From IMG/VR virus record IMGVR_UViG_2698536620_000014: a stretch of DNA of 55,939 nucleotides; one strand, written 5' to 3'. The translations under genes were made by a program, and so were the position numbers. Source of the DNA: a virus (Duplodnaviria > Heunggongvirae > Uroviricota > Caudoviricetes). Under the pieces are notes generated by a model, which saw only the letters and a list, made by a program, of their open reading frames with translations, had not been told where the DNA came from and ran no database searches. This document shows positions 2,794-16,598 of the stretch, one piece after another (the stretch's first letter is position 1; each line of letters starts with the position of its first letter).

Positions 2794-5386
2794 TTGCATA
2801 TTCCTTAGCCCAGCGGGGCAGTGATAACGTCTTAATAGCTGGCCATTCATCGGTATTGAGGCAGTCAGCCAGGGTTCGCAGATTGCGGTGATATTCCAGC
2901 TGACCTGCCAGTTTTGCTTCTTCGCCCATCATGAAAATTTCAACCGGATAACGTCCGCATTCAATAGTTGTGCTGGCAACCAGAAAAACGAAAGTTGGCT
3001 GCACTCCAAACTGTGCTTCATAACCGTCACTGTAGAATGCATCCTGAACGTGATAGCGGTAGTCGTAATAAGCGGTTTTGAATCGTTGAATATCCGCCGT
3101 AGTTTTCACGTCCATGATCCAGTGAAATTCAGGGATAATTTTGTCCGGACGGCACCGACACAAAATTGCTGTTTCAGGATCTTCCCAGTAAATTGATGAT
3201 TCAGCGTGTCCGGCGCTTTCAACAAGCCATTGCCCCAGCGGCAAAGCCATAACGCTCTGATACATGAGTTCAATTTTCCGGCCTTCTTCGGCAGTGATAA
3301 CCGTTTTTCCTGTGCTTGCGCATTCCCTCAGAAACGCTTTCTCTTCTTCTTTTCCGGAGTTTGTCCGGCGGTTAAATTCAGGTGCTACGATAAAGCGGTT
3401 ACTGAATTCTTCCGGCTCAAGTACCCGGCAGTGGAAAGCGGTTCCTAAATCGAGCGTTTTTGTCTTTGTGGTGTCCACGGGGGCATTTTTACGCCACAAA
3501 TACAGTGCCGGAGTATCAGCAATGTCATCGAGCTGAGACTTACTGACACCGGGACCCGCGTGGTAATTCTCATTCGAAATTCCGTAATAAATACCTGGCT
3601 CTATGTCTTCTACGATTACGGGATCTGCGACTTCGCCAGTTTCATCACTGCAATCGCGATGCGGATCGCTGCCAGCATTCTCATTGTGCGGATGTTCAGC
3701 GCCTTCCATTTCCTCCGGATCATTTTCCTTAGCTTCAACCTGACTCTCTTCATCGAATGTTTCCTGGTATGTTGCGTCGCCCATCACCGCACCACAGTCA
3801 GGGCAGTTATCCCCGCCAGTCTGGCCGCAGGCATTGCAGGCTATTTCCGGTTCCTGTTGCACTACTGGCTCAGGTTGATTCATATCCGGGCTGGTTTTTT
3901 CCGTTTCTGGCTGGTTCTGGTACACACAATCGCGAGTCTGGATCCCCTTTACCCATTTCGGATCGTTCGGGTCGCTAATTCCGTCAACAAATTCACCACG
4001 TGATGCAGCAAGCAATTTATCGGCATCGACAGGATTTTTTGATGGAATGTTTTTCCGGGCTTCATGGAGTTCTGCCCGCAGTTCCTGATATTTCGCATCA
4101 ACAGAATTTACCTGTGACTGAGCATCCAGCGGCTGCGTGTCCTGATGATGTTCAGTTGCGTCCGGTTCCATTGTTTCAGCCTCTCCCTGTTCAACTGCCG
4201 TTGTTCCAGATGGTTGCGGTTTTTCTTCATCATCCTGTTTTCCTTCTTCTGTTACTCGCTGCGGCATCGGGGCAGAGGAGCGACCGCAGGCAATATCCAC
4301 GATTTCCGGATCAGGGTTGGCATGATCGGTTTCAGTCAGTACTTTGTTCAGATATTCAGTGACGTGCGCGGGGATGACCTCGATCCCAATTGGTGCTTCT
4401 TTTACGGACGCAACCACGATGGCGCGGGAATAATCCAGCCCGCCAGGCATGGTGATGAATTTGTCGCGGAAAACAGAAAAGGGCGGTTTATTTTCAGCGA
4501 TAATTTCCTCAATGCGTTTAGCGTGTGCCGGATGAAGGTTATAGATGTCCAGATCCATTGAACGGGCCAGTACGCCAGTGGCTACGTCCCGCGCCAGTGA
4601 CGTCAGATCGTGTACGAAACCTTCGCCGCGATCGGTGAGGTTTCCGCCGCCAGCATTAGCACCGGAAGCCGTGCGAGTGATGTGTGAAACACGATTACCC
4701 TTCATCCACTCTTTTGTCAGCAGTCCTCGATCGGTGTAGTCAGCGTTCAGGTATGCTTCGAAAAAAGCAGTTATCAGTCCCAGGTTTGAATTACCAGGAT
4801 TAGGGAAAACTTTGTCAGTGTCACGAACCAGTTTGTGGAGTTCGCGAATTTCCAGCGGGTCGAGCAGGCTGGTTTTGTGGGAAACAGCCAGGGCAGTAAC
4901 AGCCGGTAGTTCTTCAGCCCGAGCAATGTGTAATGCCTGGAGTCCGTCGCGTGAAACGTGCGTTACCGGTTTTTCGCTGCCGTGTTGAGCAAGCCAACGA
5001 ATGGGCAGTTCCTGGCCAGAAATTGGGAGTAGCATATTCTCCTCAATCTCAGGCATGTCTTCGCCGTTGACGTTGGTATTGCCTTGATAGTGAGCGTTGT
5101 CTGGTGCTGCTCCCGGTTTTAGTTCCCATGTCATGGAGTCTTTGCTGAGTTGATAGCGTTCACTCCAGGTAAAATCGATCTCACCTTCAGCGGGCAGGTC
5201 ATTAACGACAGGAAAATTCGTGGCAACAGCTTTAAAATAGCTGCTCAGTTTTTTACCTGACTTAACGATCAGGTAGTCCAGAGTGGCACAGGTCGATTCA
5301 AAATCGTTGCTTGCCCACAGGACGACGTCAGGTTCACCGGATGATTTTTTCGCTTTCCGTAACAGGAAGAGTGGTTTTGTGCTCAT
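2786..5386 (-). CDS. recE: RecE exonuclease VIII, 866 aa
   Basis: 866-aa ORF, same length as K-12 RecE; acidic Cys-rich middle region; operon with recT. Confidence 0.9.
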
Positions 5387-5487
5387 TGTTTTTTAACCTC
5401 AACTCAGATTAAAATTCGTTTTGTTCAGTGAATGATCTTGCCGGATACACACTGTTCATAGCCTGCGCCATACGCAGGCTATTTCTT

Positions 5488-5763
5488 TCAGATTTCACCT
5501 TTTAATTTCATTGCAATTAGAGTTGCCAGAAATTCGGCTTTTTTTTCTGCGGGCAGATTCTTTCCGATATGCACCAGGCACATTTTTTTGACACCTTCAT
5601 CAAGTGTTTTTACGTTGCCTGATGGACCATCGATATCAACCACAGTGAATGGGGTTTCTTTATTTTCTGTTTTAATTACGTAGCCAATGCGCTTTCCTTC
5701 CAGATTCACCTCGTGAACAATGTCATCGGTAGTTACAACAGTGGCTTCATAATTGGTAATCAT
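5488..5763 (-). CDS. racC: RacC, 91 aa
   Basis: ATG at 5761-5763 preceded by AAGGAG; product MITNYEATVVTTDDIVHE... Confidence 0.75.
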   Translation of the reverse strand: MITNYEATVVTTDDIVHEVNLEGKRIGYVIKTENKETPFTVVDIDGPSGNVKTLDEGVKKMCLVHIGKNLPAEKKAEFLATLIAMKLKGEI

Positions 5764-5837: not shown

Positions 5838-6008
5838 TTAAAGTTCATGTGCCATCTGGTCTTTTTCGGCACAAGCTTCACTGCAATATTTTCTCGGTTC
5901 GTCTTTTGATAAAATCCCGTGCATGAAGTGAAGCATTCTTTCAATAGCTTTGCTTTCTTCAACGTCTTTTTTGCAAAGGTGGTAAGCACATTTTATTTTC
6001 TTAGTCAT
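5838..6008 (-). CDS. ydaE: YdaE-like small Cys-containing protein, 56 aa
   Basis: Not in ORF track (<60 aa). ATG at 6006-6008 overlaps kilR stop by 1 nt; product [56 protein letters not shown]. Confidence 0.6.
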   Translation of the reverse strand: MTKKIKCAYHLCKKDVEESKAIERMLHFMHGILSKDEPRKYCSEACAEKDQMAHEL

Positions 6009-6229
6009 CACCATGACTCCGCCTTTACAGGTAAACCATCACGACCGAGGAAGACTTTAATCATGCGGTCAGTAATGCATGTTTTTGTGGTCAGGTTACG
6101 AATATATAGTTTTCGCTTTTTAATATTGTTTGCCGAGGCAATATATGTCCGGCCTTCATGAAGAACATAATCGCCAGGAGTCACACACTGACGTGGTATT
6201 TCATCAGTTCCGAAGTGATGTGCAATCAT
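6008..6229 (-). CDS. kilR: KilR, FtsZ-targeting killing protein, 73 aa
   Basis: Start at M5 of track ORF ([14 protein letters not shown]...); 73 aa as in K-12. Confidence 0.8.
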
Positions 6230-6670
6230 AATTATCTCCATTTTTACAAATGAACTTTGTTGATGCGGTGCCTGGTGCCTCCAGGTGACTGCAACCAGTT
6301 AACAATTACAGTCGGCTTTCCCACCCAAACCAATAAGGACTAACATGACTTTTAACTGTGCCACGTGCGCTTAGCCGCATTCACCGCATCACAAAATTCA
6401 CTTTAAAAAGGGCGGACATCAGCCGAACTTCAAGAAAAAAACTGATGCCGCCAGGACTACACACAGCAATGTCGTTATTTACAACCGGAGGCGCACTCCC
6501 ACCATTTAAATTTAACAGACAAGACCGACTCTTTATGGATATCGGAAATGCGCCTTCGTGTTGTGCCCGGTTTTATTTCACCACCTCCGGGCTTCGGTGG
6601 TCTCGGCTATACCCCTACAGCGAGAGCTTGTGTTAACATTTCAATACCCTTACAGTTGAGAGTTATTGAT

Positions 6671-9795: not shown

Positions 9796-10542
9796 ATGAA
9801 AAATATTGCGACAGGCGACGTTCTTGAACGTATCCGCAGACTGGCCCCGTCACATGTAACCGCGCCATTCAAGACGGTAGCGGAGTGGCGCGAGTGGCAA
9901 CTTTCCGAAGGCCAGAAACGTTGTGAGGAGATCAACCGTCAGAATCGTCAGTTGCGGGTGGAAAAAATTCTGAATCGCTCTGGCATCCAGCCATTGCACC
10001 GCAAATGCTCGTTTTCGAATTACCAGGTGCAGAACGAAGCGCAGCGATACGCGTTGAGTCAGGCGAAATCCATCGCTGATGAACTGATGACCGGGTGTAC
10101 AAATTTTGCGTTCAGCGGAAAACCTGGTACCGGGAAGAACCACTTAGCGGCAGCTATCGGGAATCGCCTGCTGAAAGACGGTCAGACAGTGATTGTGGTT
10201 ACCGTGGCTGATGTTATGAGTGCCCTGCACGCCAGCTATGACGATGGGCAGTCAGGCGAAAAATTTTTGCGGGAACTATGCGAAGTGGATCTGCTGGTTC
10301 TTGATGAAATTGGCATTCAGCGCGAGACGAAAAACGAGCAGGTGGTGCTGCACCAGATTGTTGATCGCCGGACAGCGTCGATGCGCAGCGTGGGGATGCT
10401 GACAAACCTGAACTATGAGGCCATGAAAACATTGCTCGGCGAGCGGATTATGGATCGCATGACCATGAACGGCGGGCGATGGGTGAATTTTAACTGGGAG
10501 AGCTGGCGTCCGAATGTCGTCCAGCCAGGAATTGAGAAGTAA
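9796..10542 (+). CDS. ydaV: DnaC-like replication ATPase (helicase loader), 248 aa
   Basis: Walker [18 protein letters not shown] and Walker B LLVLDEIG in the translation. Confidence 0.85.
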
Positions 10543-10564: not shown

Positions 10565-11326
10565 ATGGAGACTGTTTTTGACGCACTGAAAGCAATGGGA
10601 AAAGCCACATCCATAGAACTTGCTGCGCGACTTGATATCAGTCGTGAAGAAGTGCTGAACGAACTATGGGAACTGAAAAAAGCTGGTTTCGTTGATAAAA
10701 GCGCGTACACCTGGCGTGTGGCTGATAACAACGTTCAGCAGGAACAGCCAATGCAGGCAGAACTGCCGGAAGAAACCACCACGGCAACTGTAGTGAAAAT
10801 CTCAGAGTGCGATTTAACCGCGACGATTGAACAACGCGGACCACAAACGGCGGATGAACTGGCTACGCTGTTCGGTACAACATCCCGCAAAGTTGCTTCA
10901 ACGCTGGCAATGGCAATCAGCAAAGGACGCCTGATTCGCGTAAACCAGAACAGTAAATTTCGTTACTGCATGCCGGGCGATAATTTACCAGCAGAGCCGA
11001 AAGCTGCATCGGTAGCGGAAACTGATGGTAAAGCCTTTCCTCAGCCAGCCGGTGTTGCGTTACCAGTACAGGAAGCGGCAACACAGGAAGATATTAAAAC
11101 AGAAACTGTGGCGGACATTGTGCAGTCGCTGCCATCGTTTACTGAAACGCAAGCGGATGACCTAGTTTTACCATCGCTGCATATGGCAAACCGCGAACTG
11201 CGTCGGGCGAAAAATCATGTCCAGAAGTGGGAGCGAGTCTGCGCCGCGCTGCGGGAGCTGAACAAGCACCGGGATATTGTCCGACAGATTGTCGATTCCT
11301 CCAGTCGTATTGTGTCGGAAAAGTGA
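10565..11326 (+). CDS. YdaW-like protein with N-terminal winged-helix-like region, 253 aa
   Basis: ATG 10565 preceded by GGGAGG; product [46 protein letters not shown]... Appears full-length here. Confidence 0.6.
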
Positions 11327-11341
11327 TTGCCGGAGGCGCTT

Positions 11342-11758
11342 ATGGCAAAAGTTTTTACACAGGAAGAGCGTGAAAAAATTAAGGAGCAGGTTGTTGAGTT
11401 GGTACGCCAGAGTGGGCGCGAGACGTTAAGGCAACTGGAGGCCAAGACAGGTGCGACAAGATATCTGATGAGCATTCTTGCCAGAGAGTTGGTTGCCAGT
11501 GGCGATGTATACAACTCTGGCTATGGGTTATTCCCGTCTGAACAGGCTCGTAAGGATTGGAAAAACGCCCGCAAAAAACTATCCAGGGCAAAGGTGAAAA
11601 AAACGGTTGTGGTTGATCCTGACCTTATCTGGTCATTACCAGACGGAGAAATACGCCGCTATGACAGGCGTCAGAACATAATCTGTCGCGAGTGCCGGAA
11701 GAGTGAAGTTATGAAACGTGTACTGGCATTTTATCAAGGAAATCTTCGGTATTTATAG
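11342..11758 (+). CDS. Hypothetical basic protein, 138 aa
   Basis: ATG 11342 after GGAGG; C-terminal CxxC (CRECRK). Confidence 0.55.
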   Translation: MAKVFTQEEREKIKEQVVELVRQSGRETLRQLEAKTGATRYLMSILARELVASGDVYNSGYGLFPSEQARKDWKNARKKLSRAKVKKTVVVDPDLIWSLPDGEIRRYDRRQNIICRECRKSEVMKRVLAFYQGNLRYL

Positions 11759-11896
11759 ACGTTACTAGATCAAAGAGCATTAGTTCATATGTAAATTGAC
11801 ATTTTTCTGGCACAGGGGAGAGCTAGCGTGGTTGTCCGCTTTGTGCCAATAGCGGACATTGCTGGCTCATGGTATGTTAGTTTAAGGAGGCAGGTT

Positions 11897-12919
11897 ATGC
11901 CCTGTATTTCGCTGTGGTATAATAGTTGCGCAATTGATACAAGGGAGCGTTACATCGTGAAAATTGTTTTCGAGGTTAATGGAAAGAAAGTTCCACTAAA
12001 ATCTTTAAAATACATAAGCAAAAAAGATCAACTCGAAGTAATGAAAAACTGGTTCTTTGAAAACTTTGAAGATCCGGCAAATGCTTGTCCGTATGAAAGT
12101 AGAGAAGGTGGCTATGCTTACATATATGGCGGGCCGTATGATGCGAGCGAAGAACTACAATCCATCTTCGGTCAATATGTTAAATCTGAGTATATTGAGG
12201 AATTAGTAGATGAATTACAAACACAATGTTTTGACTGGTCTGGAAACTCAAATAATATAGATGATTGGTACGATGATGATATCTACGACGCTGTAACGTC
12301 TTCCGGTAATCCGTATTTAAAATTCATTGATAATATCGATAAAATAAAAAAACTTGCAAAAGATAAAACTGAACAACAGCAAAAAAACCACTTGCTTAGT
12401 TTGCTCTACACGAATGTTATTACAGCTTTGGAAACGCTTTATGTTGAGCTATTCATTAATTCTATAGAGAAAGATGATGTCTACATAGCCAATTGTATAG
12501 AAAAAGGTAAGACTGAATTTAAAGTAAGCAAAGATATTGCTGCGTTGCCTTTCAAGGGTGAACCCATCGAGAAAATTAGGGGAGAGCTAATCAGGTCAAT
12601 CAAGGAACACTTGATCAGTGCAAGCTGGCATAGCACTAAAAAGGTAATCGACCGCTATGAAGCTACATTCGATATAAAAGTACAAAAAGACTGTCCGATA
12701 GAAGCTATTGAATTGGCAACCCTCAATCGAAATCACTTAGTGCATCGTGGTGGAAAGGATAAAGAAGGGAACCTCGTAGTGATTACAGACCAGGATCTTG
12801 AAACGCTGATTGAAAATGCATCGAACCTGGCAATTATGCTCTACAACAGTTTAAATGTAGCAACGAATAAAACCACCATTTTGCAACCAGATGACAAACC
12901 GTTCATTCATGAATTTTAA
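11897..12919 (+). CDS. Hypothetical protein with C-terminal HEPN-like R-x4-H motif (candidate RNase toxin); AT-rich
   Basis: ATG 11897 with AAGGAGG 6 nt upstream; alternative in-frame GTG 11957 with AAGGGAG. C-terminal ATLNRNHLVHRGG matches the HEPN RNxxxH signature. Coding region visibly AT-rich against GC-richer flanks. Confidence 0.6.
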   Translation: MPCISLWYNSCAIDTRERYIVKIVFEVNGKKVPLKSLKYISKKDQLEVMKNWFFENFEDPANACPYESREGGYAYIYGGPYDASEELQSIFGQYVKSEYIEELVDELQTQCFDWSGNSNNIDDWYDDDIYDAVTSSGNPYLKFIDNIDKIKKLAKDKTEQQQKNHLLSLLYTNVITALETLYVELFINSIEKDDVYIANCIEKGKTEFKVSKDIAALPFKGEPIEKIRGELIRSIKEHLISASWHSTKKVIDRYEATFDIKVQKDCPIEAIELATLNRNHLVHRGGKDKEGNLVVITDQDLETLIENASNLAIMLYNSLNVATNKTTILQPDDKPFIHEF

Positions 12920-12934
12920 TAGCGCAGGTCATAC

Positions 12935-13936
12935 ATGGATATTCGCACACGAAAGACAAAATTTTTAGAGTCGTTAGATTCAACTGAAGTGATACGCAAA
13001 GCAGTAAGTCTCGCTATAGATTGCATTATTGATAATCATAATAGTAATGAAGATACCCCCTTAGTTATTACCAGCTATGATGATCTCTGTAGAATCCAGG
13101 TGCTAAATTATGTACAGGAGTTTTGCGAAGCTGCATTCCCTGATATGGATGAATATTACTTTAGTCCTAACATACTTCGCATCAACGGCAAGACTAGTGA
13201 AGAAGCTTGTATTAACTTAATTAAACTCTTAAGAAGTACAAAAGGCATGCTATTCTGGTCCGATGCCCCATCGTGGTTCGCTAGCCTCCCCGACGGATTA
13301 TTCCATGTTGTTAACATTGATCAAAAAATCGTTACTCGCGGCCTTAATAAGAAAAACTCTAAGCCGACAATAATCAATAAAGATTACAGTGTAGATACAC
13401 TACTATCAGAGCTATTTTTGAATGGCGCACACATGGAGCAACCCAACGTACACAACGTTTCTGAGGGAAACATGAAGTTCTATGATGAATGCCATGCTGG
13501 ATTAATCAGACCAATACCCGCTCCAATAGGCGCGTCATACGATGAAGAGATCACAATTAATTCTCCAGATTGGCAAAAGCTCGCGTGTGTAGCTTTACGC
13601 CGCTATCAGTCGAAGGAATGTCATGACGGAATGCAATGGGATACAACCGATCATGGTTGGACTGATGTAATCGCGTATCCATTCGTCGAAGAAATACAAT
13701 CAATGGATAATAGTGGTTATCGACAATGTTTAGTTGGGCTGGTCACAATAAACAATTCAAATGCAAATTCTCCGTACCTATCTACCGTTTGGATACATCC
13801 ATTTTATCGCAGGAGAGGGTTATTAAGTAAGTTATGGCCAAAATTACAAGAGTTATATGGAAGTAACTTCGAAATTGAGCGACCTAATGAAAATATGAAA
13901 GCATTTCTGAAAAGTGCGAAACACGCAGATTACTAA
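12935..13936 (+). CDS. Hypothetical protein with C-terminal GNAT-like acetyltransferase motif; AT-rich
   Basis: 333-aa ORF 15 nt after the previous gene; C-terminal VWIHPFYRRRGLLSKLWPKL resembles GNAT motif A; N-terminal about 200 aa has no motif I recognise. Confidence 0.6.
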   Translation: MDIRTRKTKFLESLDSTEVIRKAVSLAIDCIIDNHNSNEDTPLVITSYDDLCRIQVLNYVQEFCEAAFPDMDEYYFSPNILRINGKTSEEACINLIKLLRSTKGMLFWSDAPSWFASLPDGLFHVVNIDQKIVTRGLNKKNSKPTIINKDYSVDTLLSELFLNGAHMEQPNVHNVSEGNMKFYDECHAGLIRPIPAPIGASYDEEITINSPDWQKLACVALRRYQSKECHDGMQWDTTDHGWTDVIAYPFVEEIQSMDNSGYRQCLVGLVTINNSNANSPYLSTVWIHPFYRRRGLLSKLWPKLQELYGSNFEIERPNENMKAFLKSAKHADY

Positions 13937-14556
13937 TTTATGAATCAGTCTGTGGAGTTAGGGTTGGTGTGAACAAGTAGGGTAAGAGCCTCAACGTGAT
14001 GCTATGCCGACCTGCTCCCTGAGAATTCACACAGAAGGCTGCTAGCAATGTCTGCAGATCGCTCAAAGCGGACTAAAATGTTGGCTTGTTTCTGACTTAG
14101 AGCATTTAAGGAAGTGCTGGTGGTGACTGGTTGTTGTGTTCCATTTCTACAGAATAAAATCACAGAAACTATACCCAATAGTTGTATTGAATCACTGACG
14201 AGACAGCCTCATATTTATCAGGACTGGTGTGCGTCTAATACAGGGGGTTGTCGTGCTGGTTCTCAAATGTGCGCTGGCTATTGCGGCTGTAATGGCAATT
14301 TATTGTCTTGCTGTTGTTCTTATGGAGCGGCTTTCTGATTGATTACATACTGGCTAGAAAAAAGGTGTTACCTTGGTTTATCTTTGTCCGGCAAGGTGCG
14401 CTCATTAATCTTAAGTAAATTTATTGCTCAAGTATTCAGATTACTTCTTATGGTTGAAGTCTCCTGTCAATGTAGAACCAATATATTTACAAAAATGAGA
14501 CCCGTCGGGGATAGCCCTGCCGGGTCTGACTGTTAAAGCATTTTTAATATGATCAT

Positions 14557-14895
14557 CTATTTTTTGGTGCTATAGACTTTTTCGCCCGAAAAGTCTGGAG
14601 CGACCCAAAAGTTAATATTAAACTGAGCATCATCGCTTAGTTCAACACGGTGCCAGTATTGTGGTGGGCTTGTTGCAAAAGCGCCAGCATTAATGACTAC
14701 TTTTATCTCCGGTTCAGTAGCATTCTCATCAGTAAAACCATAATATGTTACAGTGCCTTCCATTACGCACAACTGCCCAAAAACACCTGCTGCTGTATTA
14801 TGATGTGTTAATAACGCTGAAGGTACGTTCTCTTTTGTGAAGAACGGAGTTGAGCGTTTGATTACCCAATCTTTAGGAATTCTCTTGTGTGTCAT
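14557..14895 (-). CDS. Hypothetical protein, 112 aa
   Basis: ATG at 14893-14895 preceded by GGAGGAGGTGG; convergent with the AT-rich cassette; hairpin plus T-run downstream on the minus strand (about 14495-14525). Confidence 0.6.
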   Translation of the reverse strand: MTHKRIPKDWVIKRSTPFFTKENVPSALLTHHNTAAGVFGQLCVMEGTVTYYGFTDENATEPEIKVVINAGAFATSPPQYWHRVELSDDAQFNINFWVAPDFSGEKVYSTKK

Positions 14896-15708
14896 AACCA
14901 CCTCCTCCAAAACATGCATTAAAAATGCATCTTTTGGAGGGTTATGTCAAGCTGTTATGAAACACATAATTGATATGTTGATTAGAGGAGAAGATAGAAT
15001 AAATATGGTTGTTTTTCGTATAACTATTTGTTTTACTTTTAGTTTATGCATTCTGTGTGTTAGGAATAAGTTATTAAAGTTTAATCAAAAAATCTCGATG
15101 TAGTCCACATAGATTACTGTTACTGAACCTTATTGTGTGTATTAGTTGTGTTCTGAAATTTCAGCTTAATTATTTATGATGTATTTTTTAACGATAAATA
15201 TTTTCCCAGGATACCTTTACTGTGTATATAAATAAATTATATACGCATAAATAATGTAAAGGCGTCCTTTTAGATATATCTTATCAAATGTTAATGACTT
15301 GAGTGGGAAATATGATTCCAGCAACTTATCATGTGGCTACTTTATAAAAATAATGCCCATATAAAACAACAAGCGAAAAGGATTACGGATAAAAAAGGAG
15401 CGAGATGTGCGAACTTGTTATTTTCCATGTTTAACCACCTTAAATAATTGATGATGACGGGATGATTGCATCTGTAATGCTTTTATTGAAATGTTATGAT
15501 AAAAAAGAACTTTTGCATAACATTAAAATGTAATTTATCTAATCGTTTTTAATAATAAGTGTCGTATTTCTATCCTTGTACCAGCTATTTGATATGTAGT
15601 GTTTGTTCATGCTATGTGGGGCTTTACACCATAGCCAGTTTATTTATACTTTATTCGTCAGCCTGAACAACTGGCATCTGCTGCGCTGCGCCATCGAGAG
15701 ATTGAGAA

Positions 15709-16308
15709 ATGGCGCATATACAACTGGTCAAACAAACCTCTTCTGGTTTACTTCTCCCGGCGACGCCGGAGAGTTGCGATTTTCTGCATCAAATCAAAAT
15801 AGGTGAGTGGATACACGCAGACTTTAAGCGTGTGCGTAACTACGCATTCCACAAGCGTTTTTTCAAACTCCTGCAACTGGGATTCGATTACTGGACTCCG
15901 GTCGGTGGGGCGATCACGCCTCGCGAACGAGAACTGCTGTCTGGTTTCGTTGATTACCTGTGCGAATCAGTTGGTCGGGAACACACGCCAGCCCTGAGTG
16001 ATGCCGCAGAGCAATACCTTAACACCGTTGCGACTCGTAGAACCCGGGATACGGCGTTGCTAAAGTCGTTTGAGGCTTTCCGCGAGTGGGTAACCATTCA
16101 GGCCGGATTTTACACCGAGCATATTTATCCGGACGGTAGCCGTGGGCGTCGGGCAAAATCCATCGCTTTTGCGAATATGGACGAAGTCGAGTTTCAGCAG
16201 GTTTATAAATCTGTACTGAATGTGCTGTGGAACTGGATTCTGTTCCGTAAATTCTCCTCTCAGGAGGAAGTTGAAAATGTGGCCGCACAACTACTGGAGT
16301 TTGCGTAA
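15709..16308 (+). CDS. Lambdoid nin-region protein, 199 aa
   Basis: 199-aa ORF in the position of nin-region genes; translationally coupled to the next gene (ATGG overlap at 16308). Confidence 0.6.
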   Translation: MAHIQLVKQTSSGLLLPATPESCDFLHQIKIGEWIHADFKRVRNYAFHKRFFKLLQLGFDYWTPVGGAITPRERELLSGFVDYLCESVGREHTPALSDAAEQYLNTVATRRTRDTALLKSFEAFREWVTIQAGFYTEHIYPDGSRGRRAKSIAFANMDEVEFQQVYKSVLNVLWNWILFRKFSSQEEVENVAAQLLEFA

Positions 16309-16598
16309 TGGTGAATTTACGTAAAGCGGCTAAAGGCCAGATGTGCCAGATCAGAATCCCTGGCTACTGCAATCACAATCCCGAAACCTCTGTGCTGGCG
16401 CATTACAGGCTGGCGGGGACGTGCGGAACAGCGACAAAACCACATGATATGCAGGCGGCGATAGCCTGTAGCTCATGCCACGATCTAATCGACGGGCGGG
16501 TAAAAACCAGCGATTACACCAAAGAAGAATTGCGCCTGATGCATGCTGAAGGGGTTTTTCGCACACAAGAAATCTGGAGAAAGAAAGGTCATTTATGA
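16308..16598 (+). CDS. YbcO-like Cys-rich nin-region protein (putative nuclease), 96 aa
   Basis: 96 aa with CQIRIPGYCNHNPETSVLAHY...CSSCHDLIDG metal-binding-like Cys/His pattern; same size as DLP12 YbcO. Confidence 0.65.
   Translation: MVNLRKAAKGQMCQIRIPGYCNHNPETSVLAHYRLAGTCGTATKPHDMQAAIACSSCHDLIDGRVKTSDYTKEELRLMHAEGVFRTQEIWRKKGHL

Follow-up and report, generated by a model that had tools for sequence, protein, structure and literature searches.

Two adjacent prophage genes correspond to the published defence system DS-33

We analysed a two-gene pair carried by a Rac-like prophage of Escherichia coli, using a 55,939-nucleotide stretch of viral DNA (IMG/VR record IMGVR_UViG_2698536620_000014) that is referred to throughout, at its full length, as the window. 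Gene A (11957-12919, + strand; WP_014639476.1 in RefSeq) encodes a protein of 320 amino acids (aa), a predicted HEPN RNase that we take to be the defence effector, and gene B (12935-13936, + strand; annotated as WP_000354966.1) encodes a 333-aa protein of the GNAT fold. A preliminary description made from the sequence alone had reported two adjacent + strand open reading frames (ORFs) at this site and proposed them as a horizontally inserted toxin/antitoxin or antiphage module; both ORFs are present as described, and direct reading of the sequence found every motif at the position given for it. The same description knew of no characterised system with this pairing, yet the pair has been published as DS-33 in the DefensePredictor study (PMC13092281, Science 2026; preprint 10.1101/2025.01.08.631726, January 2025), and the system is thus not new but already cloned, tested and named. 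Table S6 of that study lists WP_014639476.1 and WP_000354965.1 under the working id 'GNAT' with the entries defensive TRUE and DS-33 (PMC13092281). The A protein of the window is identical to the tested DS-33A at 320 of 320 residues and the B protein at 332 of 333, with proline at position 289 here (P289) and leucine there (L289); gene order and the 15-bp spacer are also the same. DS-33 appears only in a heat map and supplementary tables, with no discussion in the text of the paper or the preprint and no mechanism, and the supplementary figure legends do not cover it (PMC13092281). In our literature search the two RefSeq accessions gave no full-text match, WP_014639476.1 surfacing only in supplementary tables.

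Defence requires gene A and its catalytic arginine

In the published assay the transcription unit, with its predicted native promoter, was carried on a low-copy plasmid in E. coli MG1655 and challenged with 24 phages; values are given as -log10 efficiency of plating (EOP) from plaque counts, and the genotype table covers four genotypes in two replicates (PMC13092281). DS-33 lowered the plating of T7, T3, Bas67 and Bas26 by 2-6 logs, with first-screen values of 3.0, 3.48, 2.30 and 4.70, respectively, and smaller plaques noted (PMC13092281). In the genotype table the wild-type (WT) construct reached (replicate 1/replicate 2) 3.78/2.60 for T7, 3.30/2.40 for T3, 4.0/1.98 for Bas67 and 5.0/5.90 for Bas26, and 0.77/0.08 for T5. 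Deletion of gene A (Delta-HEPN) abolished defence, with values between -0.48 and 0.54 over all phages (T7 0.08/-0.30, T5 0.54/0.08, T3 -0.48/0, Bas67 0/-0.18, Bas26 0.52/0.30), and substitution of a single predicted catalytic residue, R258A, likewise lost defence against all five phages, with values between -0.30 and 0.78 (T7 0.78/0.46, T5 0.37/0.30, T3 -0.30/0.30, Bas67 0.52/0, Bas26 0.74/0.43; PMC13092281). Defence was retained upon deletion of gene B (Delta-GNAT; T7 4.78/4.30, T5 1.73/0.55, T3 3.30/3.30, Bas67 4.0/3.30, Bas26 5.0/4.90; PMC13092281). Together, these data demonstrate that gene A and its catalytic R258 are required for defence and that gene B is not, in the published assays with L289 B. 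It is the antiphage half of the earlier proposal that these experiments, performed on an identical A and a one-residue variant of B, bear out.

Gene A combines a sensor-like N-terminal domain with a HEPN domain

Two candidate starts had been proposed for gene A, and both carry a Shine-Dalgarno-like motif and a start codon on the + strand: AAGGAGG (11884-11890) before ATG 11897, and AAGGGAG (11941-11947) before GTG 11957. The true start is almost certainly GTG 11957, yielding 320 aa: it is the start annotated in RefSeq by the Prokaryotic Genome Annotation Pipeline (PGAP), and the equivalent residue opens every orthologue. The upstream ATG is not favoured, because the extended -10 element TGgTATAAT (11915-11923, + strand) lies downstream of it and the resulting transcript would exclude that codon. 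This element is the likely cassette promoter, as predicted from the sequence, and is kept in the form TGGTACAAT in Serratia grimesii and in an Enterobacter derivative that has no gene A. It is absent from the list of a generic promoter/terminator scan because it has no -35 match; that scan showed no enrichment overall, and an Rfam search of 11000-16500 returned no RNA family.

The encoded protein divides into a predicted N-terminal alpha+beta domain of the HEPN_RES_NTD1 type (PF18870; about aa 1-115, 11957-12301, + strand) and a predicted C-terminal HEPN domain of the RiboL-PSP-HEPN type (about aa 140-308, 12374-12880, + strand). The latter contains the RNxxxH segment ATLNRNHLVHRGG, whose catalytic motif R258-N-H-L-V-H263-R264 (R-x4-H; 12728-12748, + strand) had been noted as a HEPN signature. 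Across 60 homologues with identities as low as 26%, R258, H263 and R264 do not vary, and the R258-H263 motif falls in helix 248-263 of the AlphaFold2 (AF2) model (predicted local distance difference test score (pLDDT) 88.5), which adopts the all-alpha HEPN fold; motif and fold thus uphold the HEPN assignment. PF18735 (RiboL-PSP-HEPN) does not match the window protein on its own at E<=1 and matches 26 of the 60 aligned homologues, with a best E of 7e-11. PF18870 aligns to aa 26-92 of the window protein with E 1.9e-4 and 22.2 bits, below the cut-off of 27.4, and is matched by 40 of the 60 homologues at E<=1e-3. Within the N-domain P45, G58-G59-P60, F71 and W94 are invariant. PADLOC-DB v2.0.0 gave no significant model for A (best E 0.009, to unrelated models), NCBIfam and PDB sequence searches with A and B gave no useful match, and PHROGs returned only two 'unknown function' families for the two proteins.

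The PF18870 domain is also found fused to PIN_8 and to other C-termini, and more distant proteins that share only this domain reach or come near the cut-off. In one set of loci, mostly from Alphaproteobacteria (our labels L058-L081; match at about 6001-6300 of each locus), the PF18870-like N-domain is all that is common with A; after it come a conserved GIGHNNPPE-like motif and a hydrophobic C-terminus, in many cases with LPF as its last residues. That C-terminal part constitutes another effector module, as yet uncharacterised, joined to the shared N-domain. A further protein (P0117) has PIN_8 with the PF18870-like domain instead of the GIGHNNPPE-type C-terminus.

The published clone carries an atypical residue in gene B

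Gene B encodes an N-terminal alpha/beta domain (about aa 1-175, 12935-13459, + strand) followed by a GNAT-fold domain (about aa 176-333, 13460-13933, + strand). The AF2 model (pLDDT 90.3, predicted template modelling score 0.84) has the GNAT fold, and Foldseek against the PDB returned GNAT matches only, with protein acetyltransferases on top and identity to any solved GNAT of 10-20%. The GNAT reading of the preliminary description therefore holds for the fold, but the motif A on which it was based (contained in VWIHPFYRRRGLLSKLWPKL; R292-R-R-G295-L-L297, 13808-13825, + strand) is degenerate: R292 does not vary and 37 of 46 sequences have G295, but the final position is L, M, I or F and never G or A. 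Against PF00583 the protein scored 19.9 bits, the cut-off being 20.7, and PADLOC-DB v2.0.0 gave no match.

The N-terminal domain has its own set of invariant residues (K7, D29, C30, N34, R100, D110, P119, R135 and N138). For this domain, a 20-sequence profile searched against PDB sequences gave as its best match a radical SAM protein at E 0.036, which is not credible, and Pfam scans of all members found no family matched by more than one of them. Full-length relatives of B are few, forming about 10 clusters at 50% identity, and stand-alone 160-aa relatives of its GNAT domain are likewise without a class. We take B for a GNAT-fold protein and a probable acyl-CoA-dependent acyltransferase whose N-terminal domain is novel.

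Residue 289 (codon 13799-13801, + strand), the single difference between the window and the published clone, immediately precedes motif A. It is proline in the window and in 45 of 45 homologues, and all 209 of 209 complete E. coli genomes with gene B are identical to the window over 61 nucleotides (nt) around the codon. Since the published clone has L289 at an otherwise invariant proline, the published deletion result effectively does not cover normal B; the 'GNAT dispensable' result was obtained with an atypical allele. Most likely, B has a role of its own, unconnected with the protection that A gives against the phages assayed, in another target range or in a modulatory or prophage-benefit function. 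B could also form a separate single-gene defence that is new, with an unclassified sensor domain at its N-terminus. We also entertain, as a tentative idea well short of even odds, that natural P289 B has acyltransferase activity with which it tunes or gates the HEPN effector, for instance by acetylating DS-33A, its RNA/tRNA substrate or a phage trigger; if so, DS-33 would be a HEPN-GNAT system of two components, the second of which has been assayed to date solely in the form of a rare L289 variant.

A truncated form of B was seen in nine E. coli contigs as a 320-aa chimera (P0148), in which the first ~118 residues of a DnaC-like protein are joined to B residues 133-333, corresponding to window positions 9796-10150 joined to 13331-13936. 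This arrangement implies that some prophages have deleted the rest of dnaC, the DUF1627 and DUF977 genes, gene A and the start of B.

The pair is a discrete insert bounded by inverted hairpin repeats

Upstream of the pair, all on the + strand, lie DUF1376 (ydaU-like), DnaC-like, DUF1627 and DUF977 (ydaW-like) genes. The 2181 bases singled out by the preliminary description are 100% identical in E. coli strain FORC_081, whose prophage adjoins ttcA and contains intR, recET, kilR, sieB and ydaT/U. The cassette had been described as AT-rich relative to both flanks, which proved correct for one of them. The guanine-cytosine (GC) content is 0.361 for gene A, 0.391 for gene B and 0.390 for the cassette, against 0.498 for the upstream replication genes and 0.471 for the whole window; low GC runs on past both genes to about 15650, however, which makes the downstream contrast less marked than had been stated. 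The second low-GC tract, directly after the cassette (14074-15700; GC 0.358, falling to 0.27-0.31 at 14900-15600), contains a DUF1971 gene (14557-14919, - strand) and long stretches without convincing ORFs, and is possibly more cargo.

Comparison of related loci delimits the insert more sharply than composition. Related E. coli prophages have the backbone in common as far as about 11860 and then from about 14040 onwards, and in a S. grimesii locus with unrelated flanks homology spans exactly 11834-14073; these limits show that the insert is real and not a composition fluctuation, in line with the proposal that a cassette was inserted horizontally at a hotspot of variable content. Of 5426 complete E. 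coli genomes, 3900 contain the DUF977 gene and 205-209 the cassette. In other prophages the same slot holds QueH, an alpha/beta hydrolase, or a SMEK-domain protein with a methyltransferase, and backbone homology to the SMEK-carrying prophage restarts at 14040. A SMEK-domain protein also counts among the validated systems of the DefensePredictor study, under the name DS-27 (PMC13092281).

Closer inspection of the edges revealed a 30-nt element, GTCCGCTTTGNGCNNNNNNCNGACATTGCT, with exactly two copies in the 56-kb window, where none is expected by chance. The copies are inverted, at 11834-11863 (core GTCCGCTTTGTGCCAATAGCGGACATTGCT) and 14044-14073, and lie in arms at 11821-11866 and 14041-14086 that form a 46-nt imperfect inverted repeat, marking the left and right edges of the cassette, respectively. 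Each copy falls within a hairpin (left arm -26.8 kcal/mol, z -3.2; right arm on the + strand -22.1 kcal/mol, z -2.3), and homology to prophages with other cargo stops at the left arm. Paired copies of the element also occur in IMG/VR contigs at other spacings and with cargo on either strand, the cargo between them including DarTG (locus L111 of our set), 3HP (L101/L115), a PD-T7-1-like gene (L118) and FRG/PDC-S15 (L104, L126, L127, L129); the element was additionally seen at L003, L092 and L095 and within L101-L147. The Aeromonas copy of the A-B pair has no such arms. Our literature search found no description of the 30-nt hairpin repeat pair. A transposon was considered for the cassette and not adopted, direct reading having made no target-site duplication evident outside the repeats. 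From these sequence comparisons the repeat pair appears to delimit a slot for cargo in the lambdoid prophage genome. Its presence around DS-33 and other defence genes suggests a defined exchange slot through which lambdoid prophages may swap defence cargo.

Genes A and B travel together in some elements and apart in others

We observed the A-B pair with its 15-bp spacer in four settings, namely two E. coli prophage backbones, S. grimesii and a mobilisable island of Aeromonas caviae. The A. caviae proteins are 86% (A) and 79% (B) identical to those of the window, with a SIR2 gene nearby; in that island (L082, 7212-8293) the SIR2 gene and a neighbouring cREC_REC gene form a likely defence pair, and a relaxase is also present. 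Among the 80 related A loci returned by the search, 78 have no B within 6 kb, and B occurs only beside E. coli-type A sequences and in S. grimesii. In Aeromonas taiwanensis an A homologue of 76% identity is a lone insert next to sucD, and in Yersinia alsatica a homologue of 75% identity sits in the tin/old hotspot of a P2-like prophage. The lone Y. alsatica homologue (L005) lies beside a divergently oriented 453-aa protein (4338-5699, - strand) with an R-N-x-x-x-H-like segment, ESRNKIIHQP, that may be another HEPN protein.

Conversely, B is found without A in a Serratia integrative and conjugative element, beside Abi_2 in Marinomonas, in an island of TerB, BrxC/D-like, helicase, Mrr and HEPN_Toprim genes, and in Shewanella, Idiomarina and A. 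salmonicida; the neighbours are not common to these loci. We considered whether marine bacteria have a conserved partner of 273 aa downstream of B and rejected the idea, the two 273-aa proteins being unrelated; the other neighbours had no family in common. The B-only locus of Enterobacter (86% identity) was likewise rejected as an independent B: in Enterobacter sp. NFIX59 (L095, 3317-4575) it derives from the A-B cassette by a precise deletion of A, with window positions 11833-11933 (left repeat and promoter) joined to 12858-14010. The cluster of this Enterobacter B has 142 member sequences. Collectively, these observations identify B as an autonomous gene that co-travels with A in some elements. 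Obligate pairing of the two genes, as a module of the kind first proposed would have it, is not supported, in view both of this separate occurrence and of the survival of defence when B is deleted.

A 3.3-kb contig labelled as a Collinsella sp. metagenome-assembled genome (L002, JAIHTM010000277.1) matches A over 320 aa except for the GTG start and B at 100%, and is most likely a binning contaminant, not a Collinsella gene. In strain MB56 (NZ_CP073936.1, 2539786-2544416) the cassette is split by the IS3-family element ISSen4. The phage GenBank collection contained no copy of the cassette, only the DUF977 tail.

A model for DS-33 and its alternatives

We consider the following reading as a whole probable, at about three chances in four. 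The ~2.2-kb segment comprising the promoter, A and B is a mobile cargo cassette and is DS-33, housed in an accessory slot after the lambdoid replication genes, in which A is the effector and B a co-travelling gene. DS-33A is best read, by analogy, as a single-protein, infection-activated RNase and the HEPN counterpart of aRES (compared below), because the PF18870 N-domain carries varied effectors and aRES acts only after infection. In this model A would be kept inactive in uninfected cells until its N-domain senses or relays an infection cue; the HEPN domain, probably dimeric as in other HEPN enzymes, would then cut cellular and/or phage RNA. Translation would halt and the phage cycle would be left incomplete, an abortive-infection-type outcome.

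Several points weigh against this reading. RNA cleavage by DS-33A, its target, its trigger and the abortive outcome draw on analogy with other systems, the loss of defence in R258A being indirect evidence for the metal-independent RNase activity of the HEPN superfamily, and domain membership of A rests on family and predicted fold, the protein itself falling below the PF18870 cut-off and having no PF18735 match of its own. The published 'B dispensable' result may describe an already impaired B. In addition, the 15-bp spacer stays constant in four settings despite divergence to 86% and 79%, which by sequence comparison argues for some functional tie between A and B, and the Delta-GNAT construct was at least as protective as WT against T7 (+1.0 and +1.7 log) and T5 (+0.96 and +0.47; PMC13092281).

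The points that concern B are those expected if DS-33 were a true two-component system, in which B would acetylate A, A's RNA/tRNA substrate or a phage product, as a brake or second sensor, and in which the tested B was crippled. Preservation of gene order and spacing in four contexts despite 14-21% protein divergence, Delta-GNAT values that match or exceed WT for T7 and T5 in each replicate, and L289 in the tested clone at a position where all 45 homologues and all 209 E. coli genomes have proline are all consistent with such an arrangement. However, the Delta-GNAT gain falls inside the day-to-day spread of WT (T7 2.60 versus 3.78; Bas67 1.98 versus 4.0), and B alone, in the Delta-HEPN construct, defends against nothing tested. 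B is missing beside A homologues of 54-76% identity and beside about 50 more remote ones, A is missing beside B of 39-75% identity, and the Enterobacter derivative lacks precisely A while keeping B, in a cluster of 142 sequences. We therefore regard the two-component arrangement as unlikely, and a real functional link between A and B as doubtful.

Far less probable is that the protection is an indirect or assay-limited effect of a foreign RNase, such as slower growth, and not infection-triggered immunity. The data are plaque counts on a low-copy plasmid only, plaques were smaller in the first screen, and no mechanism is published, which would all be compatible with such an effect. Against it, the protection is phage-specific, with T5 hardly affected against drops of 3-6 logs for T7, T3 and Bas26, a single catalytic residue is needed, the same slot elsewhere carries DarTG, 3HP, PD-T7-1-like and PDC-S15 cargo, and the sister architecture aRES is infection-activated. 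Finally, although HEPN and GNAT domains are both known as toxins of toxin-antitoxin modules and the two genes are tightly linked, we judge a prophage-stabilising type II or VII module (a HEPN toxin with a GNAT antitoxin, or the GNAT as a TacT/AtaT-like toxin) to be highly improbable, since the Delta-HEPN and Delta-GNAT clones were both obtained and plated with normal lawns in MG1655, so that at native expression neither gene depends on the other for cell survival, each gene stands alone in many genomes, the HEPN has no MNT partner, and B, at 333 aa with an extra domain and no ribbon-helix-helix partner, departs from GNAT toxins of ~160-180 aa.

Comparison with known systems

DS-33 reads best as a HEPN defence encoded by one gene, with a GNAT gene travelling alongside. 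For B, the C-terminal half has its GNAT fold in common with the type II toxins TacT, AtaT and ItaT and with HAT1, ESCO1, MYST and alpha-tubulin acetyltransferase; B differs from these in its extra 175-residue N-domain, its lack of an antitoxin partner and a motif A of the form R-R-x-G-x-L, not Q/R-x-x-G-x-G/A. The window also differs from the published DS-33 clone itself, carrying the P289 B of 209 complete E. coli genomes instead of L289 B.

For A, the best defence homologue in the HHblits run of the DefensePredictor authors was PD-T4-2_B, at a probability of 96.1 over 55% of A (PMC13092281). This component of PD-T4-2 belongs to the same HEPN subfamily, RiboL-PSP-HEPN, but the relation is remote and the system is a different two-gene one that was selected against T4 (Vassallo et al. 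2022, PMC9519451). A parallel in organisation is HepS of Gifsy-1, a solo HEPN abortive-infection protein that senses a tail-tip protein, cleaves tRNA anticodon loops and restricts siphoviruses (PMC13043305). HepS resembles DS-33A as a single HEPN protein with an R-x4-6-H motif in the accessory slot after lambdoid replication genes, and it is inactive by default without a partner; it differs in its length of <250 aa, its motif R100-H105 and its lack of PF18870, and the strongest targets of DS-33 include T7 and T3. We detected no sequence relationship between the two, and HepS is a functional analogue of DS-33A, a parallel drawn from these shared properties.

Our model also draws on aRES, in which PF18870 and RES domains make up a stand-alone protein that confers protection from T7, stops growth and depletes NAD+ solely upon T7 infection (bioRxiv 10.64898/2026.01.28.702374). 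Like DS-33A, aRES is a stand-alone two-domain protein with an N-terminal PF18870 domain and defends against T7, and it is found in defence islands; its effector is a RES NAD+ phosphorylase and not a HEPN RNase, and a GNAT neighbour is not described for it. We infer the link between the two from their common domain architecture. As DS-33A and aRES have a sensor-like N-domain in common and each confers defence against T7, one and the same infection cue may be read by both and conveyed to different effectors.

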